A stretch of 64,000 bases of DNA from an uncultured bacterium (GTDB taxonomy: Bacteria; Verrucomicrobiota; Kiritimatiellia; CAIKKV01): contig CALHRZ010000010.1 in NCBI GenBank assembly GCA_938038445.1, positions 16,757-80,756 on the forward strand, given 5' to 3'. The position numbers and the translations under genes were made by a program. Each line of letters opens with the position of its first letter. The first letter of the stretch is position 1. The notes under the pieces were generated by a model. The model ran no database searches. It saw nothing but the letters and a program-made list of their open reading frames with translations, and had not been told where the DNA came from. Positions 25,254-60,561 of the stretch are shown here, in pieces.

Positions 25254-25276
25254 AGGGAAGGGTGAGGTCAAGGTGC

Positions 25277-25353
25277 TGGCGTACCTGGCAGGAGTCGAAC
25301 CTGCAACCCTCAGATCCGTAGTCTGATGCTCTGTCCAATTGAGCTACAGGTAC
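25277..25353 (-). tRNA. tRNA-Arg (anticodon ACG)
   Basis: It is identical to the neighbouring tRNA except for position 34 (anticodon loop CTACGGA). It lies 23 nt upstream (in transcription order) of the TCG copy. Confidence 0.75.
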
Positions 25354-36262: not shown

Positions 36263-36287
36263 GCGGCAAGTCGTCGCTTTCGGTAAA

Positions 36288-36376
36288 CCGTTAACCGAAA
36301 CATATCATGTTCTCATATTTCACGCAAGATGGCCCCCCTTGTGGCAAGAGGCGCGATATTCCCAACGGGTTAACGG
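36288..36376. promoter_or_regulatory. Pair of inverted 9-bp sites containing GTTAAC (CCGTTAACC ... GGTTAACGG) in the AraC/hypothetical divergent region
   Basis: CCGTTAACC lies at 36288-36296 and its reverse complement GGTTAACGG at 36368-36376. They are ~70 bp apart between divergently transcribed genes. Confidence 0.3.
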
Positions 36377-36466
36377 CTTATCGCGGGGTAATCCAACCTT
36401 TTTCGTGTTTTGTCCAGGTTTGGATTGAGAAGGACGAGGGGTTTTGCTAAAAAACAGATCTTAGGG

Positions 36467-38873: not shown

Positions 38874-41800
38874 ATGACATTTCGATGCTGTTCGGGTAGG
38901 TTGTTCCAGCTTTTGGGCGTTCTTTGCAGTTTTTTTCTTTCTGAAGTGGGATGGGGGCAGACGTGGACGTTCAATGTGCCCGAACGGGTAGTGGAAACCG
39001 GCACGAATTGGTTGACGGGTGCCGGTGTGGTCAGTAAAACGGGGATTGGAACCCTCTGGCTGATTCCGACAGGGGCCACCAACGTCTATACGGGACCGAC
39101 CTATGTTTTGGATGGGGTTCTGAGGGCCGACGAGGGGCGAGGCTTGCCGTTTGCGTCCACCTTATATCTCAACGGTCAGAATGTTGCAACTCGGTCAACA
39201 GGGGTTTTGGAAACCCGTGGAACGTTTTCCCGGGATGTGGGAACCGCGGCAGGGCAAGTTTATTGGAACGGGACTTATGGCGGATTTGCCGCACGTGGGG
39301 GTGATCTTATTGTGACTCTGAACGGTGGGGCTCCGTTGCTTTGGGGCGCAGCCAACGGCTTTAATGCGAAAAGTCTTTCCTTGAGCAGCCTGACCGCGGA
39401 CGGAGCGGTCGAGATTCGGAATGACATCGGATTGGGGGCAAACCGGGCTGTTTTCATCGAGCTGAATACGAATAATGCGAACAATTTAGCGGTTCTTTCG
39501 GGTGTGATCAGCAATGGTGCTGCAAGCGCGTTCGGACTGACCGTAAATGGTCGTGGCACCTTGTGGTTGCGTAACACCAATACATTTACGGGTGCGCTCA
39601 CTTTTGGCGGGGGGACAGTGCGCGCAGTGGATGGCGTGGGGCTTCCAACGACGGCACTGGTGACATTCAACAATACGGCTACGCATGGGATACTGGAATC
39701 CTCCGGCTCATTTACTCGAACGATTGGGAGTGGGGCGGGGCAAATTTCATGGCAATCGTCGAGTGTCGGAGGAGGATTTGCAGCGTGGGGAGGGCCGTTG
39801 AATGTGAGTCTTAACGGGGGTGGGGTCATCAATTGGGCGAGCGGCACGGATGGTTTTAATGGGCGGGTTCTGGTGTTGAACAGTTTTACCGCGAACGACC
39901 GAGTCATCCTTGAAAATTCGATCGAACTTGGGGCGGCTCGCACCATTTATGTTTATGACAATCCTTTTTCTGAGAATGATGCCGCCGAGATCCGTGGTGA
40001 ACTTCGGGGAAATAATACAGGCTATAACCTTACTAAAAGCGGGCCAGGGATCTTGGAGTTGAGTGGGTTTAATTCTTATCGTGGCAATACATTTGTTGGG
40101 GAGGGAACACTGCGGGTTAATGGGACAATTGCGAGCAACAACTATATTCAGGTGAATGTTCCGGCCATGCTGAGCGGGACGGGTCGAGTGATCAGTGTCG
40201 CTGCGAATGGTCTTTTGAATTATGGGACCGTATCGCCCCAGGATGGGACAGCGGCGGGCGTTTTACGGTACACGGGGCATGGGACGCTCTATACCAACTC
40301 TCGTTTGGAGGTGGTGCTGGGACCTGGGACCCAGGTGGGGCGATTGGAGATCAGTGGGAACGTGACGATTCAAACCAACTTTATCGTGCGGTTTCGGGAT
40401 TTTGGGGGTTCATGCAAAGCAGAGGATGAGTTAACGGTTTTGACGTATGGGACCAATTGCATGTCATTTCCGACGAACAGCTGGTCTTTCGACGCCTCGC
40501 TGGTGCAACATTCAGGGCGGTGGAATTGGACGAATGCGGTGTTGGTGCACGATCCGGCGGGCAAGCGGGTTTATGTGACCGGTTTGCGGGTGGATCCGCA
40601 GACTCCGAGCACATGGGTGACTTGGAATGGAGGGGCGGGAAATTGGACGGACTGGAACTGGGATGGCCCTGAGCCGGTTCCGACCATCGAGACGGAGGCT
40701 TTGGTGCTTTCCTCCGATTCCGATATTCAGGTCACGGGGGAGCAAGAAGCCCATACGCTGACGCTTTCCAATGGGGTGGTGCAAATTGAATCGGGTGGTG
40801 AGTTGGAAAGCTATTATGTGGAGATAGGGGGTGGGGAACTGAATGTGGAGGGAGTGCTCAAAGGGTTTGAGCGGGTTCGGGTGGCTCCGGCGGGTTCCTT
40901 GCGAATTTCGGGTACGCTGCAAGGGGCCGATTTGATCATCGAAGGGACGAATGTATTGGAATCGGGCGCAGACCTACGGGTGAGGCAATGGGTGTTTGGG
41001 GCGGATCAGACGCTGGGAAGCAATGTGTCCATCGCCGCCGATCGTGTAAGCGTTCCGCCTGCTCTGTTTTTGGAATCGGGCAGTGTGCTCAGTGCGGGGA
41101 CGTGGAGTGTAAAGGGGAATGTGGATGTGGCAGCGAGCGCGCAGGTGGCGGGGCAAGTTCGGCTGGCTACGGATGGGGATATGACCATTCACGGGGAGGC
41201 GGCATCGGGTGCTGTTATAGTGATGGATGGGGGCACGTTGCGCGCTTCGGAAGCGACCAGGGTGGGCGGATTGGATTTTACCTTGGGTGGTGTTTTGATC
41301 CGGGATGGGGCAACGGATCCGTTGCAAGTGGCAGGTCCGTTGATTGTACAGGGGGTTAATTTGGATTTGGATGGGTTGAAGCTGGACACATCAGAGGCTG
41401 CCATTGTGGCGACGAATGGGTATTGGCTGAGTACGACCGGGGATTTAAATGCGGCTTCGCTCCGAATGGTCGGTCCTATGCTCCGTGTGGGAGGAATGGT
41501 TTCGATCAGCAACGTGCTGTCCCTGGAAGATGTGACGATCACCAATCCGATCACAGGAGACACGATGGTTCTGGTGGGTGAAGGGCGCACACGGGATCAA
41601 CTTGTTTGGTTGGCCGCCTCCAACTCATTTCGGGGTAAAGTTCAGATTGAGCGGGGTACTTTGAGAGCCATTCCGGGAATCGGGTTGCCTGATGATCCAG
41701 GTGCTGGGGCATTTGATTTTTCCGCCGATACTGCCGGATGGCATGCTCTCTTGGAAGGCAACGGGGTTTTTGCCCGTTCCATTGGTGAGGGGAGCGGCGA

Positions 41801-44800
41801 TGTGTTTTGGAGTGGACATGGGGGGTTTGCGGCCTGGGGGGGAGATTTGGATGTGACGCTAAGGGGTGGAGATTTGATCACATGGGGAGCCACGAATGGA
41901 TTTCGCGGTTTCAACCTTTATTTGAGCAGCACGTCCGCTACGCATGTCGTAACGCTTCACAATCCCCTATTGGTCAATGGCACACATATTTTGCGGGTTT
42001 TTGACAATCCGTTCACCAACTCCGATTATGCGCGAATTACCGGTACGATTTCCATGGATACAGCGGGGCGGATCTTACAAAAAGCCGAACCGGGCATGGT
42101 CTGGCTGACGGGAACGAACACGTTTGGGGGCCGATTGCAAATTGATGATGGGGTTGTGCGAGCGATCGACGGGGCAGGACTTCCCGCTTCCGCCACTCTC
42201 TATCTGAACGGATCACTGCCAGGGACTCGCGCGTGTGGCGTGTTGGAGAGCAGCGGGGTGTTTGCCCGTAATATTGGGACAGGCGCAGGTCAAGTCTATT
42301 GGAATAATGCCGGAGGTTTTTCGGCTTTTGGTGGGCCGTTGGAGGTCCTTCTGAACGGTGGCGCAACCATCAGCTGGGGCGCAGCCAATGGATTTAATTC
42401 CAAGATCCTTGTCTCGGGCGGTCCGACCGCCGATGAAGTCGTGACGCTAGTCAATCCGGTCGATTTGGGGGCAAATCGTTCCATCTATGTCTGGGACAAT
42501 ACGAACTCACCGTCTGATGCGTTCAAGATGGCGGGAACCCTTGCCAACGGGGGTGCAGGCCATTTTGGGATTTGGAAATATGGGGATGGTGTCCTTTGGG
42601 TGACGGGAACCAACACCTTTACCGGAGGGATCACGAACTTCAACGGCGTTGTCCGTTTTGGGGACGGCATTGGGATTTCCGCCTCCGCATCGATGCGGCT
42701 AAGCGGCGGCAATATCACGCCCTGTGTGTTTGAGACGAGTGGAACACTGACGCGGAACCTGGGCACCGAAGCCGGGCAGATCCACTGGGGAGGGAGCGGC
42801 GGTTTTGCGGCATGGGGCGGGGATCTCGACTTGGTGTTCCATGGCGGTTCGAATATTGTCTGGTCCGCGCTTTCGGGCGGATTCAACGGCCAAGTTTTGC
42901 ATTTGGGATCGCGAACGGCGAACGGACGAGTGGATCTTAAAAACGACATCGCGCTCAATGGGCACCGAACCATTTATGTGTGGGACAATCCATTCTCCAC
43001 CAGCGATTATGCCCGCATTTCCGGAACGATTTCGAACGGTCCTACAGCCGGTTCGCAATTTCTTCGGTACGGTGATGGGTTGCTGGAACTGACGGCGACC
43101 AATAGTTACACGGGGCAGACTTCTCTCTATGACGGTGATACCCGCGTGATGGGAGTTATTTCGGGACCGGTGGTAGTGGCCGTAAACCACACGAATGGGC
43201 CTCGTACGATCCTTTCGGGTATAGGACGCGTGGGTAACCTCACCGTGCAGGCCAATGGCATTGTGGCGCCGGGGGCGGGGGGTGTCGGCACCCTGACGGT
43301 GAACGGAAATGCGACAATTCAACGCGGTGCGGCCTTGGAGTGGGAGATTGGGTTGGACCAACAGTCTGATCGAATCCATATCATATCGAACGTCACCTTT
43401 AATGCGGAATGGGTTCTTCGGGTTCGGGATGGTGGAGGCTGTCCGACGAAGGAGGATCGGTATCCGGTGGTGACGTTTGGCGGTTTTCTGGCCAGCAACA
43501 CCACAACGGTATTGGATTTTTCGCTCTTGGATGAGGAGGTATGGGATGTTTCGGAGGCGCGCGTTTATTACGATCCGACCAACAAGCAGGTCGGGATCAC
43601 GGGATTGGGATACACGGGACCGCGGGTGCTGGTATCGGATGCAACCGTTGCCGAGACGGATTCGGGCGAAGTGGAGTTGGTCTTTGATGTGACGCTTTTT
43701 GATGGGTTTATGGGAGATGTGGACCTTTACTTTGCGACAGCCGATGGGACAGCGGAGGCCGGCAGTGATTACACGGCGACGTCCGGGGTGGTGACCCTGA
43801 CGATGGATTGGCCGAGCACAACGATCGTTGTAAAAGTTCAGGGGGACACGGTTCCGGAATGGCCGAGCGAATATTTCCTGTTGAGTCTCGCCGTGACCGG
43901 GGGAAACGCGCGGTTGGTGCGTTCGACGGCGGTTGGGAAAATTGCGGATGATGATGGAAGCGCGCGCTACAAGATGCCGATCGTGTTGAGCGGTTACACC
44001 GGAACAGAGACCTTGATCAACTTTCCGGCCCTTGTTACGTTCCGTGAGGGGGATGGGGGTTTCAGTTACGGGCAAATGGGGCACACAAACGGGTGGGACT
44101 TGCGGTTTCTCAATGCGGAAGAGACCGAGGAGTTGGCATACGAAATCGAGCAGTGGAATCGGGCCGGAACCTCGTATGTTTGGGTTCGGATTCCCCGATT
44201 GAGCGGCACGAACACCCTGATCTGGGCGGTATGGGGTGATGCGACGGTGACCGAACCGCCGGTGTATAGCACGAATGGAACAGTATGGTCCGAAGGGTTT
44301 GTGACGGTCCATCATTTCACACCCCCCGTTGGAGGGCTTTATCGGGATTCGGGGCCAAGAAATTTCCATGGCGTCAATGAAGGAGGCCGGATGGCATCCG
44401 GTGCAATCGGGGTCGGTTTGGATCTCAATGGGCCGACCAACAACGTCAACATGACCGGAGTGGCGTCCTCTGAACAAAGCTTCACGTTCGAGATGTGGGT
44501 TCGCACTCCCAGTTTAGTTTTGAACCGTTATTTATTTGATGCATTGAACGGCCGCCATCTGATTGCCATTAACTATCCCACCGTGGGAACGATTGCATAT
44601 TATGATGGCACATGGCGGTATTTCCCAGGGGCTCAGGGGTTGAACAATGGCGAGTGGAACCACGTGGTCGTGGTGGTTGATCGTGACGCCGGCCGTTCTG
44701 CTGTATATCTCAACGGCGAATTTGTGGGCACGAATACCTATAATCCCCGCGTGCTGGGTGGACAGGCGAGGATTGGGTCCCAATACAATGCGCCGGCAAC

Positions 44801-47800
44801 CCAGCATTATGATGGGCAGATGGATGAATTTCGCATTTCGGATCGTGCGCGTTCCGCCGATTGGATACGGGCGAACAGTCAGACCCAGAGCCGACCGGAT
44901 GAATTTGCCCGTAAAGGGAATGTCTTCACGGCTCGGGGGGGTGCGCTTGCGGAGGGGGTGTTAGCCGTGGGCAACCGTGCGGCCACCGGCGTACGCGACG
45001 GTAAGGCGACACTGAATGGAATCTTGGTTGGAACAGGCGGGGAAGCGACGGCGGGTTTGATGGTTTGCTGGGGGACGGCCGATGGGGGTACGGGGGCGAC
45101 GGGGGATTGGGAATATGCCGCTTCGCTGGGGACGGGGATTGAGCCTGCGTCATGGGTATCCTTTGAAGTTGACGGGTTGACGCCGGGTCAAAGTTATGCG
45201 TATCGGTTTTTTGCCACCAACGCAGCGGGTGAGGCGTGGGCGTCTCCGGCCGAATGGTTTGTGGTGCCTCGGGGGTGGTATGTGGCCACGACGGGTGATG
45301 GGAGCGACGGACAGAGTTGGGCCACGGCCTATACGAATATTCAGCAGGCGCTGGATGCGGCGCAACCGGGAGATGAAATCTTTCTCAAAGGGGAGCGGTT
45401 CAATATATGCAGTGATCCGACAGAAAACAACCAGCTCCTTGTCACCACGCCCAATCTCCGGATTCGCGGTGGGTACGAGGGGGTGGGGACGCCCGGGGCG
45501 AATGATCCTTCCGTATGGGTCACCATTATCACGCGCAGTGCGGGAACCAACCGGTTGATGCTCATTGATGGTGCCGACAATGTGGAGCTGTATGGACTGA
45601 TGTTTACCAATGGGTTACCCCGTGCACGTGCCAACCCTGTTCATCCTGATTCGAGTGGGGCGGGTCTCTTTATCCGAAATGCGAACGGAATCCGGATCGA
45701 ACGATGCGTCTTTCAACAGAATTGGGGCTACGGTCCGTTTGTGAACGGCGGCTATGTCTATGGCGGTGGAATTTGCGCCGTGACCTCCCGGTTGGAAATC
45801 GTTGCGAGTCGGTTTGTTTCGAACCGCGTCACCAGTTTGAGCTCGGCAAATATCCAGAATGGTTCTGGCGGCGGCATTGCCGTTGTGGATGGCGAATTGA
45901 CCATCGAGGATTCTGAAATTCTTGACAACTGGGTGGCTGGGGATTACCTGCATGGTTATGTGGATGGGGGAGGGCTTTCGATTCGGGGACTTTTTACAGC
46001 TCGGCGTGTTGTCGTGGCGCGAAACGATGTCGGAGAACCGTCGAATGATGCACGCCAATTCGGGGATGGAATTTACCTCTGGGGTGCAGGGAAGATTGAG
46101 AATGGGCTTTTCTTCAGGAATGGGCAATTCGCTCCGGGCACATCGGGAACATCGAACTTTGCGGTATATGTGGCCGGCGGGTATCTGACGATGGATCGGT
46201 GCACGGTAACCGATCACAAGCAGGCGGGTCTCTATCGAATCGGGGGGTCGGTTGTTATTTCCAATAGCATATTCTGGAACAACAACTTCTTGGATATATA
46301 CGAAAATGTGGCCGGAAACGTCATTCCCTTCTACACGCTGACCCAGCAGGGCTTTTACGATGGAGTTAATGGATGTTTTTCAGCGAATCCGTTGTTTGCC
46401 GATACCAACACCTTCCATCTGAAATCCGCCTATGGGACCTATACGGGGGGTTGGTTCAGCGGAGGCACGTGGGAGAATGCCGATGCGAACAGCCCGGCGA
46501 TTGATGCGGGCGATCCTTTATTCCGGGCCGACTTGGAGCCGTTCCCGAACGGGGGGCGGTTAAACTTGGGCGCATATGGCGGAACGATGGTAGCCTCCAA
46601 ATCGCCTCCGATTGCCGTCAGCAATGAACCGGCTTCGGGGGTGTCGCCGACGATGGCTCGGTTGAATGGGCGAATTGTGTCGGTGGGAGGCTACGGGACG
46701 GAAGCATGGTTTCTGTGGGATACAGAGGATCGAGGTGGCGATGTGGGGGCGTGGTCGAATCGTACCTTTGTTTCCACCTATGATGCGGCGGGTCCAGTGA
46801 CGTTGTTCTTGACGGGGCTAACACCGGAGACGGTTTATTATTATCGCTTGATGGCCACGAATTCGGCCGGTGGGTATGCTCTTGCCGAACCGTCCGAAAG
46901 CTTTGAAACCGTTCTTTCGAAACCTGAAGTGGCAAATCGAGGGGTGGAAAACGAAGCGGGCCCCACCGTGGTTTTGAAAGGCGAGGTGGTATTGACAGGT
47001 GGGGAAGACCCTGGGGTTTACGTCGTATGGGGTGAGGTTCCTGGTGGAAAGGCAACTGGGAGCTGGGAAAACGTGGTTTATGCCGGTTTTCAGGGAGGAA
47101 CGTTCAGCGTCGAGGTCGCGACGGCACCGGGACGCAGCTATTATTACACCTGTTATGCGACGAACAGTGGGGGAGAGGATTGGGCGTGGCCTCCCATTCA
47201 TTTTGGAGTCTCCAACTTATTCTATGTGTCAGCCGATGCGGTGGGAGAAGGCACAGGTCAGGGGTGGGTCAATGCTTTCAGCAACCTGCAAGATGCGCTC
47301 AATGCGGTGCTCTCGGACAAACCCACGGAAATCTATATCAAAGGAGGCGGCGGCAAGGAGCTGCAAGCGGCTGCGGAAGTCGGGTGGAATCGGTCCAACG
47401 TGCGGATTCTGGGCGGTTATGAAGGGGTAGGCTGGCCTGGGAATCGTGATCCGGAGGTTTGGCCGACCGTTTTGACTCGTCGCCCTGCCAACTTCATTCG
47501 GATCCTTTCGATACAGGGTGTTACGAACGGCTTACTGGATGGCGTGACCATACGCCATGGCAATCTGGCCGATTTCGGGGGTGGGATTCGGATTGTGAAT
47601 TCGACGAATCTAACGATTGCAAACTGCCGGATCGAGCGGAACAAGGGAGAGAATGCGACGGGAGGAACGACGGGGGGTGGCGGGGTGTATGCGGTCGATT
47701 CGTTCGGGGTGATTACGAACTGTTTGTTTGAGCGTAACGCGGTGACCAACACGGCTGGAGGCGGGTTTGCGTTGGGCGGCGGATTGATGATTTCGAATGG

Positions 47801-49619
47801 GCAGTGGACGATCCGCGACAGTCAGTTTATCTACAATACGGTGAATGCCAGCGGAAGCGGCTCGCGTGGGCGTGGTGCGGGCGTATATATTCATGGCGGC
47901 CAGCATGCGATCCGAAACTGCCTCTTTACCCAGAACTATCCTGCCGGAGCGGTGGATCAAGCGACGATGGCGCAAGGCGGGGCAGCCTACTTGACCAATA
48001 CCGTTGTTGCGTTCGATTACGTGACGGTGGCCGGCAATGTGCATGAGGGAATTCATGGCGCACAATTTGCCGAAATCCGGCATTCGATCCTGTGGCACAA
48101 TGGGAAAGACCTTGTCGGAACGCCGGGCGTATTGGCATACAACTCCATCAGTGACGGGGATGGGGTGGGGACCAATGGAAACGTGGTGACGGATCCTCGG
48201 TTTGAATATGGGTTCTATCTTGGTGATGGGAGTGGGTGTCGGGATGCGGCTTCGGAGACCGCTGCAGCGGCTGGGTTGGGCGGGATGTCGACCCGAGCGG
48301 ATGGGGCTTTGGATGAGGGTATGGCGGATCTTGGGTATCATGCGGCGCGTGGGATTGGGCCTTGGCACACTCTCTATGTGGCGACGGACGGCAATGACGC
48401 AAATGCCGGAACGAATTCTGCGGCCCCCTTGCGATCGCTGACAAGGGCTCTTGAAAAGGCGCTGATGGGGACGCGCGTCCTTGTTGCCGAGGGGCTCTAT
48501 GACAAAACGGTGGAAACATTCCCACTGATTGTGGACAAGGCGGGAATTCAACTTCTCGGTACGAATTTCGAAACCACAATTGTTTCCGCTTTGAATGCCA
48601 CGAGCCGGGTATTTCACGTCTTTGAGGCTCCGTGGGTTGTGTTGAGGGGAATGACCATAAGGGATGGCGTTCAGACGACTTATCGGTACTATCAGCAGGG
48701 CGGTGGGTTGTGGATTCGTCATTCGACTGATCTGCTGTTGGATCGCTGCGGGGTCGTCAACAATCTCAATCAGGGCGCAGTCAACGAGAATCGTTATGGG
48801 GGCGGTATCTATGCAGAAAATGCGGCGTTTGCTCGGGCGATCAACACTCGTTTTGTCAGCAACACCGTGTTTGCGAGTGCCGGACTATGGTCTGGTCTTG
48901 GGCATGGTGGGGGATTATACTTGTTGCGGGGAAGCTGGACCTTCGAGCGGTGTGTCTTTTCGGGCAATCTGGCCCGTGGGTACAATAATGAAGGTGCCTT
49001 GGGAGGCGCGGTGGCCATCTTGGGGGGAACCCATGAGTTTCGCAATTCCTTGATCGTCTCCAACAGTCTCGAATCCCGGGGTTATGGAGGGGATGGCGTG
49101 TATTCCCAGAACGCGACCACCCGCGTGGTAAACTGCACGGTTGCGGACAATGGGTGGCATCCGACGAAACCTGCGGGCTATTTTCGCGATGGATTGAGGC
49201 AAGTCGGAACGGGATACTTTGAAGTGCGCAACAGCATTGTGTATGGAAATCAGACGAACGATTTGGCGGGATTCACCACGAATGAGGTGGGCGAGTTGAT
49301 TAATGTTTACTACACGTGCATCGGAGACGGCCAAAACAACGGCGTGCAAGGATGCTTCCAGGCTGATCCGTTGTTTGCGGACCGTATTCATTATCATGAG
49401 CTATCCCGGAAAGGCTATTACAGCGGGGGCTTCTGGACAGGTGGGGAATGGCTCCTGGGCGGGGAAACAAGCTCTTGCATTGATGCGGGGGATCCCAATG
49501 ACGCGTATGAACATGAACCGGAACCCAACGGGAAGCGGATCAATCTCGGCGCATATGGCAACACGGAGACCGCCAGCAAGACGGCACGGCCGGGAGGAAC
49601 ACTCATCATTGTTCGGTAA
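38874..49619 (+). CDS. Giant (3581 aa) secreted multidomain surface/adhesin-like protein: PATR (autotransporter-associated beta-strand) repeats, Calx-beta, DUF2341-LamG, FN3 modules and three PbH1 beta-helix modules with choice-of-anchor-Q-like caps
   Basis: It has a signal peptide and a strong RBS (GGAGGG). Repeated GTLWL...NTFTG...GGTVRA units occupy the N-terminal ~1400 aa. The Calx-beta signature is VSDATVAETDSGEVELVFDVTL...DYTATSG. The LamG region is GEWNHVVVVVDRDAGRSAVYLNGEF. The repeated caps are DAGDP...NGGRLNLGAYGGT and CIDAGDPNDAYEHEPEPNGKRINLGAYGNT. Confidence 0.7.
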   Translation: MTFRCCSGRLFQLLGVLCSFFLSEVGWGQTWTFNVPERVVETGTNWLTGAGVVSKTGIGTLWLIPTGATNVYTGPTYVLDGVLRADEGRGLPFASTLYLNGQNVATRSTGVLETRGTFSRDVGTAAGQVYWNGTYGGFAARGGDLIVTLNGGAPLLWGAANGFNAKSLSLSSLTADGAVEIRNDIGLGANRAVFIELNTNNANNLAVLSGVISNGAASAFGLTVNGRGTLWLRNTNTFTGALTFGGGTVRAVDGVGLPTTALVTFNNTATHGILESSGSFTRTIGSGAGQISWQSSSVGGGFAAWGGPLNVSLNGGGVINWASGTDGFNGRVLVLNSFTANDRVILENSIELGAARTIYVYDNPFSENDAAEIRGELRGNNTGYNLTKSGPGILELSGFNSYRGNTFVGEGTLRVNGTIASNNYIQVNVPAMLSGTGRVISVAANGLLNYGTVSPQDGTAAGVLRYTGHGTLYTNSRLEVVLGPGTQVGRLEISGNVTIQTNFIVRFRDFGGSCKAEDELTVLTYGTNCMSFPTNSWSFDASLVQHSGRWNWTNAVLVHDPAGKRVYVTGLRVDPQTPSTWVTWNGGAGNWTDWNWDGPEPVPTIETEALVLSSDSDIQVTGEQEAHTLTLSNGVVQIESGGELESYYVEIGGGELNVEGVLKGFERVRVAPAGSLRISGTLQGADLIIEGTNVLESGADLRVRQWVFGADQTLGSNVSIAADRVSVPPALFLESGSVLSAGTWSVKGNVDVAASAQVAGQVRLATDGDMTIHGEAASGAVIVMDGGTLRASEATRVGGLDFTLGGVLIRDGATDPLQVAGPLIVQGVNLDLDGLKLDTSEAAIVATNGYWLSTTGDLNAASLRMVGPMLRVGGMVSISNVLSLEDVTITNPITGDTMVLVGEGRTRDQLVWLAASNSFRGKVQIERGTLRAIPGIGLPDDPGAGAFDFSADTAGWHALLEGNGVFARSIGEGSGDVFWSGHGGFAAWGGDLDVTLRGGDLITWGATNGFRGFNLYLSSTSATHVVTLHNPLLVNGTHILRVFDNPFTNSDYARITGTISMDTAGRILQKAEPGMVWLTGTNTFGGRLQIDDGVVRAIDGAGLPASATLYLNGSLPGTRACGVLESSGVFARNIGTGAGQVYWNNAGGFSAFGGPLEVLLNGGATISWGAANGFNSKILVSGGPTADEVVTLVNPVDLGANRSIYVWDNTNSPSDAFKMAGTLANGGAGHFGIWKYGDGVLWVTGTNTFTGGITNFNGVVRFGDGIGISASASMRLSGGNITPCVFETSGTLTRNLGTEAGQIHWGGSGGFAAWGGDLDLVFHGGSNIVWSALSGGFNGQVLHLGSRTANGRVDLKNDIALNGHRTIYVWDNPFSTSDYARISGTISNGPTAGSQFLRYGDGLLELTATNSYTGQTSLYDGDTRVMGVISGPVVVAVNHTNGPRTILSGIGRVGNLTVQANGIVAPGAGGVGTLTVNGNATIQRGAALEWEIGLDQQSDRIHIISNVTFNAEWVLRVRDGGGCPTKEDRYPVVTFGGFLASNTTTVLDFSLLDEEVWDVSEARVYYDPTNKQVGITGLGYTGPRVLVSDATVAETDSGEVELVFDVTLFDGFMGDVDLYFATADGTAEAGSDYTATSGVVTLTMDWPSTTIVVKVQGDTVPEWPSEYFLLSLAVTGGNARLVRSTAVGKIADDDGSARYKMPIVLSGYTGTETLINFPALVTFREGDGGFSYGQMGHTNGWDLRFLNAEETEELAYEIEQWNRAGTSYVWVRIPRLSGTNTLIWAVWGDATVTEPPVYSTNGTVWSEGFVTVHHFTPPVGGLYRDSGPRNFHGVNEGGRMASGAIGVGLDLNGPTNNVNMTGVASSEQSFTFEMWVRTPSLVLNRYLFDALNGRHLIAINYPTVGTIAYYDGTWRYFPGAQGLNNGEWNHVVVVVDRDAGRSAVYLNGEFVGTNTYNPRVLGGQARIGSQYNAPATQHYDGQMDEFRISDRARSADWIRANSQTQSRPDEFARKGNVFTARGGALAEGVLAVGNRAATGVRDGKATLNGILVGTGGEATAGLMVCWGTADGGTGATGDWEYAASLGTGIEPASWVSFEVDGLTPGQSYAYRFFATNAAGEAWASPAEWFVVPRGWYVATTGDGSDGQSWATAYTNIQQALDAAQPGDEIFLKGERFNICSDPTENNQLLVTTPNLRIRGGYEGVGTPGANDPSVWVTIITRSAGTNRLMLIDGADNVELYGLMFTNGLPRARANPVHPDSSGAGLFIRNANGIRIERCVFQQNWGYGPFVNGGYVYGGGICAVTSRLEIVASRFVSNRVTSLSSANIQNGSGGGIAVVDGELTIEDSEILDNWVAGDYLHGYVDGGGLSIRGLFTARRVVVARNDVGEPSNDARQFGDGIYLWGAGKIENGLFFRNGQFAPGTSGTSNFAVYVAGGYLTMDRCTVTDHKQAGLYRIGGSVVISNSIFWNNNFLDIYENVAGNVIPFYTLTQQGFYDGVNGCFSANPLFADTNTFHLKSAYGTYTGGWFSGGTWENADANSPAIDAGDPLFRADLEPFPNGGRLNLGAYGGTMVASKSPPIAVSNEPASGVSPTMARLNGRIVSVGGYGTEAWFLWDTEDRGGDVGAWSNRTFVSTYDAAGPVTLFLTGLTPETVYYYRLMATNSAGGYALAEPSESFETVLSKPEVANRGVENEAGPTVVLKGEVVLTGGEDPGVYVVWGEVPGGKATGSWENVVYAGFQGGTFSVEVATAPGRSYYYTCYATNSGGEDWAWPPIHFGVSNLFYVSADAVGEGTGQGWVNAFSNLQDALNAVLSDKPTEIYIKGGGGKELQAAAEVGWNRSNVRILGGYEGVGWPGNRDPEVWPTVLTRRPANFIRILSIQGVTNGLLDGVTIRHGNLADFGGGIRIVNSTNLTIANCRIERNKGENATGGTTGGGGVYAVDSFGVITNCLFERNAVTNTAGGGFALGGGLMISNGQWTIRDSQFIYNTVNASGSGSRGRGAGVYIHGGQHAIRNCLFTQNYPAGAVDQATMAQGGAAYLTNTVVAFDYVTVAGNVHEGIHGAQFAEIRHSILWHNGKDLVGTPGVLAYNSISDGDGVGTNGNVVTDPRFEYGFYLGDGSGCRDAASETAAAAGLGGMSTRADGALDEGMADLGYHAARGIGPWHTLYVATDGNDANAGTNSAAPLRSLTRALEKALMGTRVLVAEGLYDKTVETFPLIVDKAGIQLLGTNFETTIVSALNATSRVFHVFEAPWVVLRGMTIRDGVQTTYRYYQQGGGLWIRHSTDLLLDRCGVVNNLNQGAVNENRYGGGIYAENAAFARAINTRFVSNTVFASAGLWSGLGHGGGLYLLRGSWTFERCVFSGNLARGYNNEGALGGAVAILGGTHEFRNSLIVSNSLESRGYGGDGVYSQNATTRVVNCTVADNGWHPTKPAGYFRDGLRQVGTGYFEVRNSIVYGNQTNDLAGFTTNEVGELINVYYTCIGDGQNNGVQGCFQADPLFADRIHYHELSRKGYYSGGFWTGGEWLLGGETSSCIDAGDPNDAYEHEPEPNGKRINLGAYGNTETASKTARPGGTLIIVR

Positions 49620-49622: not shown

Positions 49623-50993
49623 ATGAGAAAAATCGCACGGCTCAATCAGGAATGGAAAAAAATCTCCAAAGTTATTCAGGCATGGGAAGGGGCGATCGAC
49701 CCTCTTTTCATGACCCCTACGGAGGAATTTAAACGCCGGCAGACGGCTGTTTGGAAATCATTGGAGCAAGGGGGATACGACGCCGGGTTTGTCTTTTCGG
49801 ACGAACATTACTGCGGCGACGTGCCGTATCTGGGAGGCAATACCAATATTTCCATTGAGCAAGTAGCGGGGCTGATCGGGTCGACGGGTTTTCATTTGAT
49901 TGCCGGTTTGGAAGGGGGATATGTCGCCGAACAGCTTGCCTACCGTTCCGGTTGCACGGTTCATAAGGCCGAGCTGTTGCAACTTGCCGACGAAAAATAT
50001 CCCGTTGCAGCGGAAAAGTTGGGCGATATTTTGCAAGCGGCGGCCGGAAAACCGTTGCCAGCGATACGGAAGATTGGGTTGCTATCGCCCCGGCAGGTGA
50101 TTCCGTCCAGTCTCATCGAGCATTTGCATCATCTCCTCGGGCCGGAGCGTGTCGAGGATGCGCAGGAGCGGTATTTTCGGATCAAATACGAAAAATCGGA
50201 TGTTGAGATGCGATTGATCGCCGATGCCTGCAAGGTGGCCGATGCCATGATGCGGGGAATGTTGGCGGTTTTGAGGCCGGGCATGTTGGAAACGGAGGTC
50301 GCGGCCTGGGCGTCATTCCTAGGGAAAGCATTGGGCTGTGAGGATTGCGGCTTTAAGGTCATGGTGGGGGCCAATGAAGCGAACCGGACTCTGATTGGGA
50401 AGGCCCTTAATCGCCCGATTCAGAAAGGGGATTGGGTCCATTTGGGCGTGGCGCCGACGAGAGACGGGCTCAACTCGTGCATTCGCCGGTCGGTTATTGC
50501 GGTCGAATCGCCGGAAGAGGTCACATCGGATCAACGATATTGGTTCCGGTTCATCGAGCAAGCCTATCGCGTGGGGCATCGAAAATATGTGGAAGTGGCA
50601 AAAAACAATCTACCGGCCAGGCTTCAAGAGCAAGCGCTGGTGGATTTTTTTGCGTCGAAAGCGGAGGAAGTTTCCCGGCGGGTGGGAAAACCTATTCCCC
50701 TCGCGCAACTGAAGCCGTATACGGGAACCCACAATGCGGGGTATACGGAATGCCAGGAGTTTTTTGGCGCCATCACCTTGGAGTCCGAAGAGCCGCTTGG
50801 CCGTCAGATTGTCACCATGTTGGATGTCGCACTTCGGGGGTTTGGAAGCAAGTGGCATGAGGTGGTCATTCCGGGTTTTGACTACATCGTCATTGAAAAC
50901 ACGTTGGGGAAATACGATTCGACGATCAAAACCCTCACCCAGATGCCGTTGAACGTGCAGCGGTTGGTGGGGAATGTGGACGAATTGAAATAG
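49623..50993 (+). CDS. Hypothetical protein (possible creatinase/M24-peptidase-like fold), co-transcribed with the giant gene
   Basis: It starts 3 nt after the giant gene stop. The weak resemblance to Xaa-Pro aminopeptidase/creatinase architecture is not a confident assignment. Confidence 0.3.
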   Translation: MRKIARLNQEWKKISKVIQAWEGAIDPLFMTPTEEFKRRQTAVWKSLEQGGYDAGFVFSDEHYCGDVPYLGGNTNISIEQVAGLIGSTGFHLIAGLEGGYVAEQLAYRSGCTVHKAELLQLADEKYPVAAEKLGDILQAAAGKPLPAIRKIGLLSPRQVIPSSLIEHLHHLLGPERVEDAQERYFRIKYEKSDVEMRLIADACKVADAMMRGMLAVLRPGMLETEVAAWASFLGKALGCEDCGFKVMVGANEANRTLIGKALNRPIQKGDWVHLGVAPTRDGLNSCIRRSVIAVESPEEVTSDQRYWFRFIEQAYRVGHRKYVEVAKNNLPARLQEQALVDFFASKAEEVSRRVGKPIPLAQLKPYTGTHNAGYTECQEFFGAITLESEEPLGRQIVTMLDVALRGFGSKWHEVVIPGFDYIVIENTLGKYDSTIKTLTQMPLNVQRLVGNVDELK

Positions 50994-55654: not shown

Positions 55655-56512
55655 ATGAGCGAGATCGCACAGATTCAGAAGCAACATGGCATTGTGGGCC
55701 GGGAACGGGAGATGCGTCTTGCGTTGGCGATTCTGCAATGTGGGCGGCATCTGTTGCTCGAGGGTCCTGTGGGGGTGGGTAAAACGACGGTTGCGCTGGC
55801 GGTATGTGCCCATCTGGGTCGGCGCGTTTGGCGGGTGGATGGGGACGACCGGTTCACGGAGCAAAAACTGACCGGGTGGTTTGATCCGCCCTTGGTGCTC
55901 AAGGCGGGGTATGGGGATGAATCCTTTACGCCGGGACCTCTGCTCGAAGCGATGGAGGTCGGGGGCGTTTTGTTCATCAATGAGTTGAACCGGATGCCGG
56001 AGTCAGTTCAGAACGTTCTTCTCCCCGCGTTGGATGAAGGGGTTCTTCAGATTCCTCACCTCGGAGAGCGCCGAGCGCGCCCCGGCTTTCAGGTCGTGGC
56101 AACTCAGAATCCGATTGAATATGTGGCCACCGGACATCTTTCCGAAGCGTTGCGGGATCGATTTGAGCATGTGGGGTTATCCTATCAGAGCGAGGAAGAG
56201 GAGATTGCGATTGTTCGGCGCCATGTTCCGGATGCGCCGCTCGAGCTTGCAGAGGAGGCGGTTCGCTTGACGCGCGCGACACGGCAGCATACGGCCTTTC
56301 GACGGGGCGCTTCGGTGCGGGCGGCCATTGCCATCGCGCAGATCGCGATGGCAATTGGGGGCCCTTCCGCCTTGTCGCAGGCGGCGGAAGCTGCTCTGAC
56401 GACTCGGGTGGAGGTGAACGAGACGGACGGATCGGGGTTAAGCGGCGTTATTCAGGCGATTCTGGCTGAAAAAAAAAAGAGCTGTTCGAATTACGCCCCG
56501 TCCCTGATCTGA
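55655..56512 (+). CDS. MoxR/CbbQ-NorQ-type AAA+ ATPase
   Basis: Walker A LLEGPVGVGKTT, Walker B VLFINELNR and the short (~285 aa) CbbQ/NirQ/NorQ-like size fit. It starts 9 nt after the paaK-like gene. Confidence 0.75.
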   Translation: MSEIAQIQKQHGIVGREREMRLALAILQCGRHLLLEGPVGVGKTTVALAVCAHLGRRVWRVDGDDRFTEQKLTGWFDPPLVLKAGYGDESFTPGPLLEAMEVGGVLFINELNRMPESVQNVLLPALDEGVLQIPHLGERRARPGFQVVATQNPIEYVATGHLSEALRDRFEHVGLSYQSEEEEIAIVRRHVPDAPLELAEEAVRLTRATRQHTAFRRGASVRAAIAIAQIAMAIGGPSALSQAAEAALTTRVEVNETDGSGLSGVIQAILAEKKKSCSNYAPSLI

Positions 56513-56607: not shown

Positions 56608-57390
56608 TTGGACGGCTGGAAACTGGCGGAGACCGTTTCCGAACTCGGGTATGAAACGACAAATCCAGCCATCCGGGAGGAAGCGGTTCGGCTGGCGGCC
56701 TGGGCGGTGCTACGCCGGGCATGCCGTTTGGTCGGGCCGTTAAGGCTCAGCCGACGCAAGCGGCGGGAGGTGATGCGGGAATCGTTTCGGGGGGAGCTTG
56801 AAGTCGAGTTGACGTTGGACAATATATTGGGTAAAGAGATGCCTGAACCTCACGATTGGATGGCCGTATTGCCGGAGGAGCATGCACGGGCGGTCTGTCT
56901 GATGATGGATGTGTCCCTCAGCATGTCGGGACGTAATCTCGCATTGGCGGCATTGGCGTGCGCCGTACTGGCGCTCAAGATTCCCCCGGGCGACCTGGCG
57001 TTGGTGGCCTTTGACAGCGTGGCGCGTCGGTTGGTGGCGTTGGGGGAAAAGGTTTCGGCAGAGGAAGTGATTCGGCGAATATTGCGGTTGCCGGCTCGTG
57101 GTTATACGAATCTTAAGGATGCGTTACAGACCGGAGGAAAAGAATTGAGCCGTGCCCGGAGCGGAAAGCGTGTCGGCGTGTTGGTGACCGATGGGGTTGC
57201 GACGGTTGGGGAAGATCCTCTGTCGGAGACAAGGCGTTTTCCGCGGCTTCATGTCTTGATGACGGAAGATGGGAAAACGAACGAAGTTCTATGCCGGAAG
57301 ATGGCAAGCGGGGGACAAGGGCAACTGCTCCGGATCCGTCGGTTGGAAGAGATGCCGGCACGGTTATTGGAACTGGCGAATCGGCTATGA
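56608..57390 (+). CDS. von Willebrand factor A (vWA) domain protein, partner of the MoxR ATPase
   Basis: The MIDAS motif DVSLSMSG lies in a VWA fold (...VLVTDGVAT...). A start further upstream via a non-ATG codon is possible. Confidence 0.6.
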   Translation: MDGWKLAETVSELGYETTNPAIREEAVRLAAWAVLRRACRLVGPLRLSRRKRREVMRESFRGELEVELTLDNILGKEMPEPHDWMAVLPEEHARAVCLMMDVSLSMSGRNLALAALACAVLALKIPPGDLALVAFDSVARRLVALGEKVSAEEVIRRILRLPARGYTNLKDALQTGGKELSRARSGKRVGVLVTDGVATVGEDPLSETRRFPRLHVLMTEDGKTNEVLCRKMASGGQGQLLRIRRLEEMPARLLELANRL

Positions 57391-57406
57391 AAGGACGGGC
57401 GTTTCG

Positions 57407-58393
57407 ATGATGACAGCGCGAGAGATCATTTTGGCGAATGCGAAATCTGACGGCGCGGACCGGCCGGGGTTCGACTTTGATGGCGGGCGGCGCCGAGACA
57501 TTCTGTGGGCGGGGCTGTCACCCTCTCGGCGTTGGAAAGAGCGGCGATGGAGAGAAGGAGGGTTCGAGTATTATGACGATGCCTGGGGAAACATCTGGCA
57601 TCGGAAACCGGATATGTCTGCGACGGGGGAGGTTTGGAAACCGGTGTTGGAGGATTGGGGAAAGCTGGATGCGCTCGTTCTGCCCGATTTCGATCATTCA
57701 GAACGATATGAGGATATGGCCAAGGCATTCCGAACAGATCCGGACGACCGGTTTCACATGGCCTTTTTGCCGATGTGGATATTTGCCGTCAGCCGTTATT
57801 TGAGGAAGATGGAAATTTATCTCACCGATTTGATCGAGTATCCGGAGGAGATTGACGCCTTACACGGGAAAGTGGCCGATTTGGCCGAACGGGTAATCCG
57901 GCAATGTGCGGAGGCGGGAGCGCATGGGGTGTTTTTCTGCGAGGATTGGGGAGTTCAGGATCGGCCGTTGGTATCGCCGGCCATGTTTCGAGAACGGTTC
58001 GCACCGCATTACCGGCGGCTGACGGCCGCGGCTCATGATCGCGGGCTTCTCGTGTTCATGCATTCGTGTGGGAACAATACCCAGCTGCTGGAGGATTTTG
58101 CCGATACTGGTTTGGACTGTTTTCAATTTGATCAGCCGGCGGTTTATGATATGCCCGCTCTGGCGGCTTGGATGCGAAAACGGAAGATCGGACTTCATGC
58201 CCCGCTGGATATTCAACGGTTTCTCCCTACGGGCGACCGGGCGCTGATCGTACGCGAGGCCCGGCGCATGGTCGAACTATTTCGCGGCGGATTGATCCTC
58301 AAGAACTACCCTGATCTGAAGGGAATCGGGGTTCAACCCGAATGGGACCAGTGGGCCTATGAAGAATTTCTGTCGGCCGCCGATCTGTCCTAA
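57407..58393 (+). CDS. Uroporphyrinogen decarboxylase (URO-D) family protein, second paralog
   Basis: The start was trimmed to ATG 57407 (MMTAREIILANAKSDGADRP...). The URO-D-like length and motifs (FMHSCGNNTQLLEDFADTGLDCFQFDQP) match. It starts 16 nt after the vWA gene. Confidence 0.5.
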   Translation: MMTAREIILANAKSDGADRPGFDFDGGRRRDILWAGLSPSRRWKERRWREGGFEYYDDAWGNIWHRKPDMSATGEVWKPVLEDWGKLDALVLPDFDHSERYEDMAKAFRTDPDDRFHMAFLPMWIFAVSRYLRKMEIYLTDLIEYPEEIDALHGKVADLAERVIRQCAEAGAHGVFFCEDWGVQDRPLVSPAMFRERFAPHYRRLTAAAHDRGLLVFMHSCGNNTQLLEDFADTGLDCFQFDQPAVYDMPALAAWMRKRKIGLHAPLDIQRFLPTGDRALIVREARRMVELFRGGLILKNYPDLKGIGVQPEWDQWAYEEFLSAADLS

Positions 58394-58467: not shown

Positions 58468-60561
58468 ATGAAAAAGAAGGTGTTCGTCATTCTGCTTTTT
58501 TCGGGTCTGATTGAAATCTGCGTGGGGGGATCGGTCTGGGACGGAGGAGGGGCTGATGCTTCTTGGGGGACGCCGGAGAACTGGAATTCTGATACGTTGC
58601 CGGCTTTTGATGGCACGGAAACCATTACGTTTTCCGGATTGTCAAGCGGGACCAACTTGACGCTGGACGGCGACCGGCGGATTCGTTCCATTACCCTTCC
58701 AACCGGAAACGACATTTCCATTAGGTCGGGCACGCCGTCGGGAAGTCGGTTGGAAATCCAGGGGGGCAGCATCTCTCTTTCCGCTAACACCCGAAGGCAT
58801 GCTTTTGATTGTCCGATTTTACTTTTGGGAAACGTTGCCGTCACAAACGCCGGCGCCTCCGGAGCATTTATTCGATTTCAGGGGCCCATTTTGGATGAAG
58901 GGGAGGGGTACGGGCTGAGCGTGGCGGGATTGCGAAATACAACGCTCAGTGCCAGCAACGATTTTCGGGGACCTGTCCTCTTGATGGCAGGCGTTCTCTA
59001 TGTGGCGGACGATTTTGCCCTCGGGCATGGGACATTGATCTACAGAGGCGGTGCCCTTTTCGCGAGCGGGAACCGCACAGTGACCAACAGCTTGGATATC
59101 GAAGCCACTCCATTCAATTTTGGAAATAATGGGGGCTCTGGGATGTATTTTACAGCCCCCGGCATTGTCTCGCTGAAGACCAATGTAGAATTCAAGTTAA
59201 CCCAGGCGACAGGCGCCGGATCTGAATTGCGATTTATGAACGGCATTCGGGAAGATATTCCCGGTTGTTCCATGACCCATAACCATAATCGAACCATGTG
59301 GCTTTATGGCACGAGCACCTTTACCGGACCGGTTATTCTTCAATCCGGCACCCTACGTTTTGGCGGCACGTTGATGGCCTCTTCGGTCCAGCAAAGCGGT
59401 GGAACCATTGAGATTGCTGCGCATAATCCGCTGGGCACGGGAACGTTATTTTTGGCGGGCGGGCGGTTTTCATCTGCGGGGACGCGATGGCAATTGGACA
59501 ACGACGCGTTTTGGAGCGGGACTCATGGCATTATGGTCAATGGCGGGTCCCACATTGACTTTAATCTCGACGGAGGGGCTGCGATTCTGACGGATCATAT
59601 GGTGTTTGATCATCGAGGGACCTCCTCCGATCCGGCAACATCCCCTAAATTCCATCGGGGCTTTCAGGAGACCAACGGGTCGTTTGGGATCACATGGAAA
59701 GGCAGTCCGTCGCGATACATCCGGTTGGCCGGCACCAGCACCTATACGGGACCGACCATTGTCACCGACCTGATTGTTCGGGTTGAAGCCGAGAATGCGC
59801 TTCCCACGAATACGGCACTGTCGGTTTTCAGCACGGTCCAAATGCTGGGTAATGCGACCACGATCGGAAGCCTGCAAGGCAATGGAGCGGTGGATACGGG
59901 GGGAGGGCTTTTGACCCTTGGGGGCGACGGAACCGCGTCGTATGAAGGAAGAATCATGGGCGCAGGGGGACGGCTGCTTAAGGTCGGGTCGGGCGTGCAG
60001 CGGTTGGCATGGACCAATCTTCAGAGCTATACCGGATGGACGCGCATTGAAGGCGGTATTCTTCGGTTGGACGATGGTTTGACGTCTCAAATCAGTCTTG
60101 TGGAAGTTGTGGGCGGCTGTCTGGGGGGGACCGGTCTCGTCAACCGTCCTGTACGAGTTTATGGCGGCGGACGGTTGGGCGCCCATGGGGTGACGGTGCC
60201 GGAAGGAGGAATGCTGAGAATTCCACGCACGGTGACGCTGGAGGACGAGGCGGCCCTGGTTTGGACAGTCGCGGCCGATAGTCAGGATCGGATTGCGGTT
60301 TCCGATCTCGTTCAGCAAGGGGCCGTGACCCTTTATTTGCGTAATTACGGACGTGCGATTCAACCGGAAGACACTTTCGAAGTTGTTCCCTACACCGGTT
60401 CGCTCACGGGGTTCGAACCGGGACAATGGACGTTGGATACTTCCGAGTCGCCCATTCCGATTTCCGTTCGGTCGGCGCAAATCGAGAATACAGGTGCTGC
60501 GATTGTAATATCTGGGCTTCGATCGCCGGTTGCTCCTGGAACGGTCATACAGATTCGCTAA
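58468..60561 (+). CDS. Secreted autotransporter-associated beta-strand (PATR) repeat protein
   Basis: It has a signal peptide (MKKKVFVILLFSGLIEICVGG) and a strong RBS (AGGAGGG). Repeated GTL...GGxL...G units are present. It ends ...VAPGTVIQIR. Confidence 0.5.
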   Translation: MKKKVFVILLFSGLIEICVGGSVWDGGGADASWGTPENWNSDTLPAFDGTETITFSGLSSGTNLTLDGDRRIRSITLPTGNDISIRSGTPSGSRLEIQGGSISLSANTRRHAFDCPILLLGNVAVTNAGASGAFIRFQGPILDEGEGYGLSVAGLRNTTLSASNDFRGPVLLMAGVLYVADDFALGHGTLIYRGGALFASGNRTVTNSLDIEATPFNFGNNGGSGMYFTAPGIVSLKTNVEFKLTQATGAGSELRFMNGIREDIPGCSMTHNHNRTMWLYGTSTFTGPVILQSGTLRFGGTLMASSVQQSGGTIEIAAHNPLGTGTLFLAGGRFSSAGTRWQLDNDAFWSGTHGIMVNGGSHIDFNLDGGAAILTDHMVFDHRGTSSDPATSPKFHRGFQETNGSFGITWKGSPSRYIRLAGTSTYTGPTIVTDLIVRVEAENALPTNTALSVFSTVQMLGNATTIGSLQGNGAVDTGGGLLTLGGDGTASYEGRIMGAGGRLLKVGSGVQRLAWTNLQSYTGWTRIEGGILRLDDGLTSQISLVEVVGGCLGGTGLVNRPVRVYGGGRLGAHGVTVPEGGMLRIPRTVTLEDEAALVWTVAADSQDRIAVSDLVQQGAVTLYLRNYGRAIQPEDTFEVVPYTGSLTGFEPGQWTLDTSESPIPISVRSAQIENTGAAIVISGLRSPVAPGTVIQIR

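Follow-up and report, generated by a model that had tools for sequence, protein, structure and literature searches.

A seven-residue C-terminal tail as a candidate tag on signal-peptide repeat proteins of Kiritimatiellia

Three large repeat proteins encoded in a 64,000-nucleotide stretch of a Kiritimatiellia contig (CALHRZ010000010.1; the whole stretch is called the window, and coordinates refer to it) end in nearly the same seven residues directly before the stop codon, and this tail is the subject of the present analysis. The G+C content of the window is 58%, and its DNA polymerase I is at most 66% identical to that of Kiritimatiellia metagenome-assembled genomes, with the next-best matches also coming from Kiritimatiellia, some of them mislabelled. 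The three proteins, the domain that stands before the tail in two of them (the pre-anchor domain) and the putative Sec signal peptides, which were taken from a hydrophobicity heuristic only, are located as follows.

33495-35333, plus strand: protein 1, 612 amino acids, with signal peptide, right-handed beta-helix of Chlamydia-PMP repeats, Disaggr_assoc-like pre-anchor domain and tail
33495-33578, plus strand: putative Sec signal peptide of protein 1, MNGCFDIRVLVAAIAVGILGMRSSVWSA
35034-35291, plus strand: pre-anchor domain of protein 1 (PF08480), HVDPL...SPCIDAGDP...NGERINLGRYGNT..AS, homologous to the end of protein 2
35310-35330, plus strand: tail of protein 1, GTLIFVR, with the stop codon TAG at 35331-35333
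38874-49619, plus strand: protein 2, 3581 amino acids, with signal peptide, PATR repeats, Calx-beta, DUF2341, LamG, FN3-like, beta-helix and DUF1565 regions, pre-anchor domain and tail
38874-38957, plus strand: putative Sec signal peptide of protein 2, MTFRCCSGRLFQLLGVLCSFFLSEVGWG
49320-49577, plus strand: pre-anchor domain of protein 2, ADPLF...SSCIDAGDP...NGKRINLGAYGNT..AS
49596-49616, plus strand: tail of protein 2, GTLIIVR, with the stop codon TAA at 49617-49619
58468-60561, plus strand: protein 3, 697 amino acids, with signal peptide, PATR repeats, autotransporter-passenger-like beta-helix without a barrel, and tail
58468-58530, plus strand: putative Sec signal peptide of protein 3, MKKKVFVILLFSGLIEICVGG
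60538-60558, plus strand: tail of protein 3, GTVIQIR, with the stop codon TAA at 60559-60561

Translation gives the C-termini NLGRYGNTGEASRSSGPTGTLIFVR (protein 1), NLGAYGNTETASKTARPGGTLIIVR (protein 2) and SPVAPGTVIQIR (protein 3), or, cut shorter, SSGPTGTLIFVR, TARPGGTLIIVR and again SPVAPGTVIQIR, which are exactly the G-T-[LV]-I-x-[VI]-R endings named in a preliminary description of this DNA; the signal peptides it assigned to all three proteins likewise correspond to hydrophobic N-terminal segments recognised by the heuristic. Among the 582 stop-to-stop frames of at least 60 amino acids in the window, the tail (searched as [LVI][IVL]x[IVL]R-COOH or in its G[TS]... form) closes three, those of proteins 1-3, and these are all three of the window's large repeat proteins with signal peptides. 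It is encoded by gga acc tta att ttt gtc cga in protein 1, by gga aca ctc atc att gtt cgg in protein 2 and by gga acg gtc ata cag att cgc in protein 3. These 21-nucleotide DNAs vary at synonymous sites and the sequences downstream of them are unrelated; the synonymous differences indicate that the similarity is selected at the protein level and is neither a DNA repeat nor the end of a mobile element. The last 150 amino acids of proteins 1 and 2 are homologous (37% identity, E=1e-20, BLASTP), and protein 1 matches the Pfam families Chlam_PMP (3e-28) and Disaggr_assoc (1.8e-6), whereas protein 3 has nothing in common with the other two except the tail. The tails of proteins 1 and 2 cannot therefore be counted as separate cases, and within the window only protein 3 provides an independent one. 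The earlier view that the ends have no further domain in common thus holds for protein 3 and fails for proteins 1 and 2, which share the 150-residue homology and PF08480.

Three explanations of the tails were rejected. An insertion-sequence or DNA-repeat origin had been considered with regard to three open reading frames (ORFs) of 456 amino acids (3824-5194, 36410-37780 and 49623-50993), which looked repeated but are unrelated, being an ABC permease, a protein without Pfam match and an M24 peptidase; the last of these, the next gene downstream of protein 2, starts at 49623, 4 nucleotides past the giant gene. The synonymous differences in the tail DNA also rule out such an origin. Read-through into a hidden membrane helix was dismissed, as the in-frame sequence past the stop codon is short and not hydrophobic. 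Flavinylation by ApbE was dismissed as well, the G-T of the tail being different from the S-G-A-T motif and the ORFs beside apbE being without S-G-A-T.

Beyond the window, 27 of the 96 retrieved relatives, with 23 distinct tails, match G-x-x-Phi-x-Phi-x (Phi, hydrophobic) at the C-terminus, where about 1% would be expected. Positions outside this filter are conserved too, with T at -6 in 15, L, V or I at -5 in 19, I at -4 in 13 and R at -1 in 17 of the 23 distinct tails, and positions -10 to -8 are rich in P, A, S and G. The motif occurs at a rate of 0.24 per protein at the C-terminus versus 1.9e-4 per internal position, an approximately 1200-fold C-terminal enrichment. In its general form the tail consists of a Pro/Ala/Ser/Gly-rich linker of 4-8 residues followed by G-[T/A]-[L/V/I]-[I/L/F]-x-[I/V/F/L]-[R, rarely Q/N/W/Y]-COOH. 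The strict motif first proposed therefore describes the window, while the relatives are looser and admit A as well at the third position. Signal-peptide-like N-termini are present in 17 of 22 long carriers, and the remaining five are 5'-truncated gene calls. Apparent frameshifts occur in giant genes of this kind: at L190 (1-14734) a giant tail gene is split into three consecutive ORFs with Disaggr_assoc matches and one tail, and at L059 (10-2869) the last 150 amino acids lie in another frame, so that gene callers deliver fragments without a signal peptide or without a tail.

The tail is preceded by at least six unrelated domains. Disaggr_assoc (PF08480), one of them, matches protein 1 and many relatives; the choice-of-anchor Q model NF041518 scores above its cut-off in P0045, P0049, P0052 and P0055, and in all of these but P0049 its match leaves 10-12 residues up to the C-terminus; LamG/DUF2341 precedes the tail in P0056 and P0066, an FN3-like module in P0050, and PATR in protein 3 and its orthologs. 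The matches to NF041518 and PF08480 classify the domain before the tail and not the tail itself. As a group, the carriers are Sec-exported, non-barrel, adhesin-like proteins with PMP/pectate-lyase-type beta-helices, PATR passenger-like helices, LamG/DUF2341, PKD or DUF285. Homologues of the pre-anchor domain have three kinds of ending, namely a stop after ...GAYGGT..ASKSP, a dockerin-like module, or the tail, which is found among them as PGTLLMIN, EGAVMILR, GGTLVTFQ, SGTAIMFR and NGALILIR. In a search seeded with the last 1000 amino acids of protein 2, 12 of the 13 best homologues bear the tail (GGMAIMFR, GTVITIR, GTLLMLR, GAVILIN, GTSFLFR, GTLYMFR, GPIFILR, GSILSIR, GALITLY, GACIIVW, GTVILVR and GTLIRVW) and few of the more distant matches do, so tail presence tracks closeness to the query.

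Protein 3 allows the tail to be followed within one orthologous group. P0035 is an exact copy of it, P0036 is a 39%-identical ortholog ending SPASPGTVISIR, and two further orthologs end AGTVFYVR and SGTLILIQ. At about 40% identity the ortholog tails read GTVISIR, GTVFYVR and GTLILIQ, with G and T invariant while neighbouring residues diverge. The proposal of a conserved C-terminal tag gains from these comparisons, as the element is modular, position-specific and recurs after unrelated domains on signal-peptide proteins.

The carriers come mostly from one lineage. Those with an organism name at NCBI (P0047, P0056) come from metagenome-assembled genomes of Kiritimatiellae or Kiritimatiellia, and the genome loci with carriers are also from Kiritimatiellia, whereas 287 kb of Bacteroidota and other control loci contain no tail carrier. 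A profile search with protein 3 as query gave a list of 150 representatives, of which 148 had not been retrieved before; among these 148 PATR proteins about 55 have autotransporter-barrel-like ends and at least 32 have PEP-CTERM, and among the representatives listed the tail occurs only in the protein 3 orthologous group. Planctomycetota relatives of the pre-anchor domain are tail-less or end in a dockerin. At the tail position, homologues from other phyla thus carry a PEP-CTERM or PGF-CTERM signal, an autotransporter barrel or a dockerin, and this replacement by known anchors indicates that the tail occupies the anchor site of other lineages and is rare outside Kiritimatiellia.

Since a tail profile of 7-10 columns cannot reach significance in 1.8 billion proteins, metagenome contigs were scanned for the DNA pattern of P-G-T-[L/V]-I-x-[I/V/M]-R followed by TAA or TAG, which yielded at least 120 loci, many chance matches included. 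Among the matches listed, 30 close a long ORF in frame versus 5 and 13 in the other two frames, and about 16 of the in-frame closures are surface-type proteins. They include PATR proteins (L117, L070, L100), a DUF285 protein (L076), PKD and beta-helix proteins with a ...D.GCYE pre-anchor ending (L080, L118), LamG proteins (L072, L151, L158), proteins without Pfam match (L135, L136) and a lipoprotein with a metallo-beta-lactamase fold (L114). Every listed surface-type match with an intact start has a signal peptide or a lipoprotein signal (L117, L076, L080, L072, L135, L114). The flanks of the listed matches contain no second tail-bearing ORF. The remaining in-frame matches listed are unrelated to these proteins and comprise the YkuD family, a recurrent high-G+C frame of doubtful reality and a few cytoplasmic proteins, and the motif alone is therefore not diagnostic.

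No NCBIfam or Pfam model for the tail was found, either on whole proteins (NCBIfam, E<=1) or on the last 60 amino acids alone (E<=10), and full-text literature on Kiritimatiellota C-terminal signals, surface proteins and secretion yielded no prior description of it. The comparison with sorting models agrees with the earlier statement that the tail is distinct from PEP-CTERM, LPXTG and type IX secretion system (T9SS) signals, none of which was matched even at E<=10. Like the tail, the PEP-CTERM (TIGR02595), PGF-CTERM, GlyGly-CTERM and MYXO-CTERM signals stand at the extreme C-terminus of Sec-exported surface proteins, have many substrates per genome, are restricted to certain lineages, are found on the same passengers (PATR, choice-of-anchor Q, PGF-pre-PGF) and keep the order of motif, hydrophobic stretch and basic residue. 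Unlike them, the tail comprises 7-9 residues, with 4-5 hydrophobic residues in place of a membrane helix of about 20 residues and a single basic residue before the stop in place of an Arg/Lys cluster; its signature is P-x-G-T and not Pro-Glu-Pro, the PEP-CTERM profile does not match, and no exosortase gene was seen in the 64-kb window or in carrier flanks. The combination of LPXTG-like motif, membrane helix and basic tail is absent from proteins 1-3, with no model match; the organism appears to be diderm, since outer-membrane-type proteins are encoded. The T9SS C-terminal domain (TIGR04183) and the autotransporter barrel are also C-terminal export or anchoring devices on the same passengers (beta-helix, PKD, PATR), but they are folded domains of 70-300 residues as against seven, and their models gave no match: a beta-sandwich of 70-100 amino acids of the TIGR04183 or type B kind is lacking, the domains before the tail differ among carriers, and, in place of the 12-strand barrel of type Va autotransporters, the passenger-like helix of protein 3 ends 7 residues past a short linker.

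A partial likeness exists with the beta-signal of outer-membrane proteins, whose consensus is zeta-x-G-x-x-[aromatic/Phi]-x-[aromatic/Phi] (PMC10945584). Both the tail and this signal, which is read by strand 1 of BamA, are C-terminal and strand-forming, and the G at -7 and Phi at -4 and -2 of the tail stand in its register, but one more residue follows them. The transmembrane barrel that bears a beta-signal is absent here: proteins 1 and 3 are modelled as beta-helices, and LamG, PKD and Calx-beta are among the Pfam domains of carriers. A precedent for non-barrel proteins with such tails is offered by soluble lectin-like bacteriocins, which pair a short C-terminal peptide with BamA strand 1 (bioRxiv 10.64898/2026.09.25.754295). 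The peptides of these bacteriocins (LlpA, pyocin L) resemble the tail in being short, C-terminal and attached to soluble non-barrel proteins, in having a Phi-x-Phi that is not last, and in pairing with a barrel by beta-augmentation. They differ in being hypervariable and aromatic-rich, in seldom having the glycine and in poisoning the BAM complex of another cell, whereas the tail is conserved and aliphatic and is carried by the cell's own adhesin-like proteins.

Structure predictions give a divided picture. In an AlphaFold2 model of protein 1 (36-sequence alignment, mean predicted local distance difference test score, pLDDT, 79), the beta-helix is predicted at a pLDDT of about 90, and the last 19 residues form a coil outside the fold at 50-58. 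In a model of the C-terminal 297 residues of protein 3 (6-sequence alignment, mean pLDDT 86), TVIQI (fragment residues 292-296) is a strand at a pLDDT of about 80 that follows two long strands; the fold of this fragment matches the autotransporter passenger Ssp (8e7f, E=2e-4) and also EspC, EspP and Hbp. The models suggest a strand-prone tail that, in some carriers, may pack against the protein to which it belongs.

Our results point to the tail as a credible new candidate C-terminal tag, distinct from the known ones and with a plausible structural alternative. The best-supported reading, to which we give an even chance, is that it is an ultrashort sorting or retention tag specific to the class Kiritimatiellia, which would act as a terminal beta-strand docking on a receptor. 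This reading is chosen because the distribution of the tail is modular, position-fixed, fold-independent and lineage-dependent, and because known anchors substitute for it in homologues. After Sec export, the tail would form a terminal beta-strand in which Gly and a hydrophobic dyad stand in beta-signal register (G-x-x-Phi-x-Phi) ahead of a single further residue that is basic in most cases. This strand would pair by beta-augmentation, aided by the free carboxylate and the Arg, with an outer-membrane receptor, plausibly of the Omp85 type, or with a periplasmic one, and the receptor would then either translocate the protein through the outer membrane or retain it at the cell surface. We infer a sorting or anchoring role, the augmentation step and the kind of receptor together. 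A bolder version, which we put forward tentatively and consider doubtful, is that the tail directs proteins to a route of export or surface retention that has yet to be described. Soluble, non-barrel adhesins of giant size would use the seven-residue, beta-signal-like strand, with its obligatory free Arg-COOH, to bind a receptor in the outer membrane, of the Omp85 family or of another kind. If so, a 'barrel-less autotransporter' pathway could replace PEP-CTERM, type V secretion system (T5SS) or T9SS anchoring in Kiritimatiellia.

Several observations weigh against a docking tag. Around polA, approximately 677 kb of Kiritimatiellia DNA yielded only four good carriers: SPLGTLMLFR closes a frameshifted PATR protein (L059), PPGLLIILR and NQGLLIIVR close two proteins with signal peptides (L023), and KGGFFLVIQ closes another PATR protein (L021). 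An all-against-all BLASTP comparison of the ORFs flanking 17 carriers revealed no recurrent neighbour family beyond the carriers themselves; the window encodes only ordinary chromosomal genes (by Pfam a sulfatase, ABC transporters, UvrB, DNA polymerase I, SerA, ApbE, an AraC regulator and a MoxR/VWA pair) and no sortase, exosortase, rhombosortase or obvious secretion gene. No co-occurring sortase/exosortase-like or protease gene emerged as a partner from the window or from carrier neighbourhoods. Compared with a beta-signal, the tail has one extra terminal residue, which is R in 17 of 23 cases and not Phe or Trp, and aromatic residues are rare in its dyad; putative outer-membrane proteins of the lineage end ...YSF and ...MSF, which indicates that the tail is not just the beta-signal of this lineage. 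With 4-8 residues, the linkers vary little in length and are short enough to permit packing on the same protein, and in protein 3 the tail may form the closing strand of the sheet at the C-terminus, a placement presumed rather than read from contacts in the model. Finally, a YkuD L,D-transpeptidase family unrelated to the carriers ends EPGTLIRVR at a minimum of eight loci. These loci (L108, L089, L181, L184, L169, L160, L075, L125) lie on high-G+C contigs and have ...LPT.YEPGTLIRVR beyond the Pfam YkuD domain; YkuD L,D-transpeptidases are also exported, and both coincidence and a shared reader are possible.

The strongest competitor to a tag is a structural role without sorting machinery, in which the tail is a hydrophobic edge strand that caps the protein's own last domain or pairs between molecules during self-association or stacking of adhesins. 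The strand predicted for TVIQI in protein 3 keeps this explanation alive, and the short linkers, the beta-rich nature of all carriers and the use of the same motif as a conserved C-terminal strand in the YkuD family agree with it. A cap strand, however, needs no constant Gly-Thr start, Arg end and carboxylate distance over at least six unrelated folds; many homologues with the same domain are complete without the tail on long contigs (P0010, P0012, P0023), the model of protein 1 shows its tail as coil of low confidence, and the distribution is bounded by lineage and not by fold. We regard a purely structural role as rather unlikely. A miniaturised sortase-type signal, that is, a shrunken PEP-CTERM or PGF-CTERM (P-x-G-T, hydrophobic stretch, basic end) cleaved by a transpeptidase or protease for covalent attachment to an envelope glycan or lipid, is improbable. 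Its order of motif, hydrophobic stretch and basic end mimics the three-part design, preceding domains are named 'PGF-pre-PGF' (P0007) and 'choice-of-anchor Q' by NCBI, PATR homologues end in PEP-CTERM, and two carriers adjoin glycosyltransferase genes. Exosortase and archaeosortase substrates nevertheless need a membrane-spanning segment, for which 4-5 hydrophobic residues are too few; the PEP-CTERM and other CTERM models stay silent even at E<=10, exosortase-like genes are not seen in the window or carrier flanks, and approximately 700 kb of Kiritimatiellia loci contain no convincing PEP-CTERM ORFs.

The strict dependence on a free C-terminus could also be explained by a periplasmic quality-control or turnover tag, with a tail-specific or PDZ protease or chaperone that holds or degrades giant exported proteins pending their secretion by a general route. 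PDZ-type tail readers do bind hydrophobic C-terminal peptides, but the final residue favoured by PDZ and tail-specific proteases is hydrophobic, whereas 17 of 23 tails end in Arg, and the tail is confined to adhesin-like proteins while other signal-peptide proteins of the window are without it; this explanation is more improbable still. Least probable of all, and already disfavoured, is the absence of any function, the likeness of the tails being due to chance, or the tail being a short module that domain shuffling has distributed and that descent alone preserves. The homology of proteins 1 and 2 over their last 150 amino acids and the plainly unrelated nature of some pattern matches (cytoplasmic proteins, spurious frames) fit such a view. 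It is countered by the C-terminal enrichment of about 1200-fold, by 23 distinct tails after unrelated domains, by the invariance of G and T in orthologs of about 40% identity despite diverging neighbours, and by a chance of approximately 1e-5 (a rough estimate from typical amino-acid frequencies) that the strict motif would appear on the third window protein.

Each of the tags LPXTG, PEP-CTERM, T9SS C-terminal domain and MYXO-CTERM opened the way to a secretion or anchoring machine of its own, and surface proteomes are predicted from them. Kiritimatiellia abound in sediments, mats and guts, where they degrade polysaccharides. A tag of seven residues, without membrane helix or folded domain, would be the shortest signal of this kind and would be invisible to profile-based annotation. 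It would offer a handle for discovering the machine by phylogenetic profiling and for listing the surface proteins of Kiritimatiellia. Even as a structural strand and nothing more, the tail remains useful for marking a large family of hypothetical proteins.

The surroundings of the carriers provide some minor observations. The three tail genes are not conserved in the polA neighbourhoods of 63 genomes. Two tail-bearing beta-helix proteins (on the P0045 contig and at L191, 2748-12670) adjoin glycosyltransferase genes, one beside a single GT2 gene and the other beside an 8-gene glycosyltransferase/acetyltransferase/methyltransferase cluster, which recalls the link of PEP-CTERM to exopolysaccharide loci. 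Between proteins 1 and 2 (35387-38808) lie an AraC-type regulator (minus strand, 291 amino acids), the 456-amino-acid protein without Pfam match, which is membrane-anchored, and ApbE, whose start overlaps the stop of the membrane-anchored protein by 4 nucleotides. The P0045 contig has a similar layout, with a 461-amino-acid protein without Pfam match followed by a 295-amino-acid AraC regulator just upstream of the carrier; judged by arrangement, AraC regulator and no-Pfam protein may be a conserved regulatory pairing. Directly upstream of protein 1, an 861-amino-acid signal-peptide protein without Pfam match (30620-33205) ends ...LERLGEVDR, so some large exported proteins of the cluster lack the tail.

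A second recurrent ending is found in related giant surface proteins. It is an aromatic-aromatic-basic-aliphatic strand located 2-7 residues from the C-terminus, as in ...TSFYRLKL, ...AAFYRVKSE, ...VYQFYKAVITP, ...AVFFKVTVEK and ...TGYYRIRAERR, and it occurs in P0060, P0062, P0037 and P0236 and at L070 (1991-7252), L015 (15003-20576), L024/L066 and L034 (16894-19623). Probably a C-terminal Ig-like domain ends in this strand, or else the ending is another kind of tail. A 259-amino-acid signal-peptide protein of the window without Pfam match (15781-16560) ends TLRLHTSLMYSF, a canonical beta-signal with a final Phe, and is probably a small outer-membrane barrel. Two ORFs resemble URO-D (uroporphyrinogen decarboxylase/methyltransferase family), at 23153-24823 (minus strand) and at 57269-58393, the latter lying directly upstream of protein 3 after a MoxR AAA ATPase (55655-56512) and a VWA protein (56608-57390). 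Tandem tRNA-Arg genes with the anticodons TCG and ACG are located beside uvrB (25177-25353, minus strand), 24 nucleotides apart.

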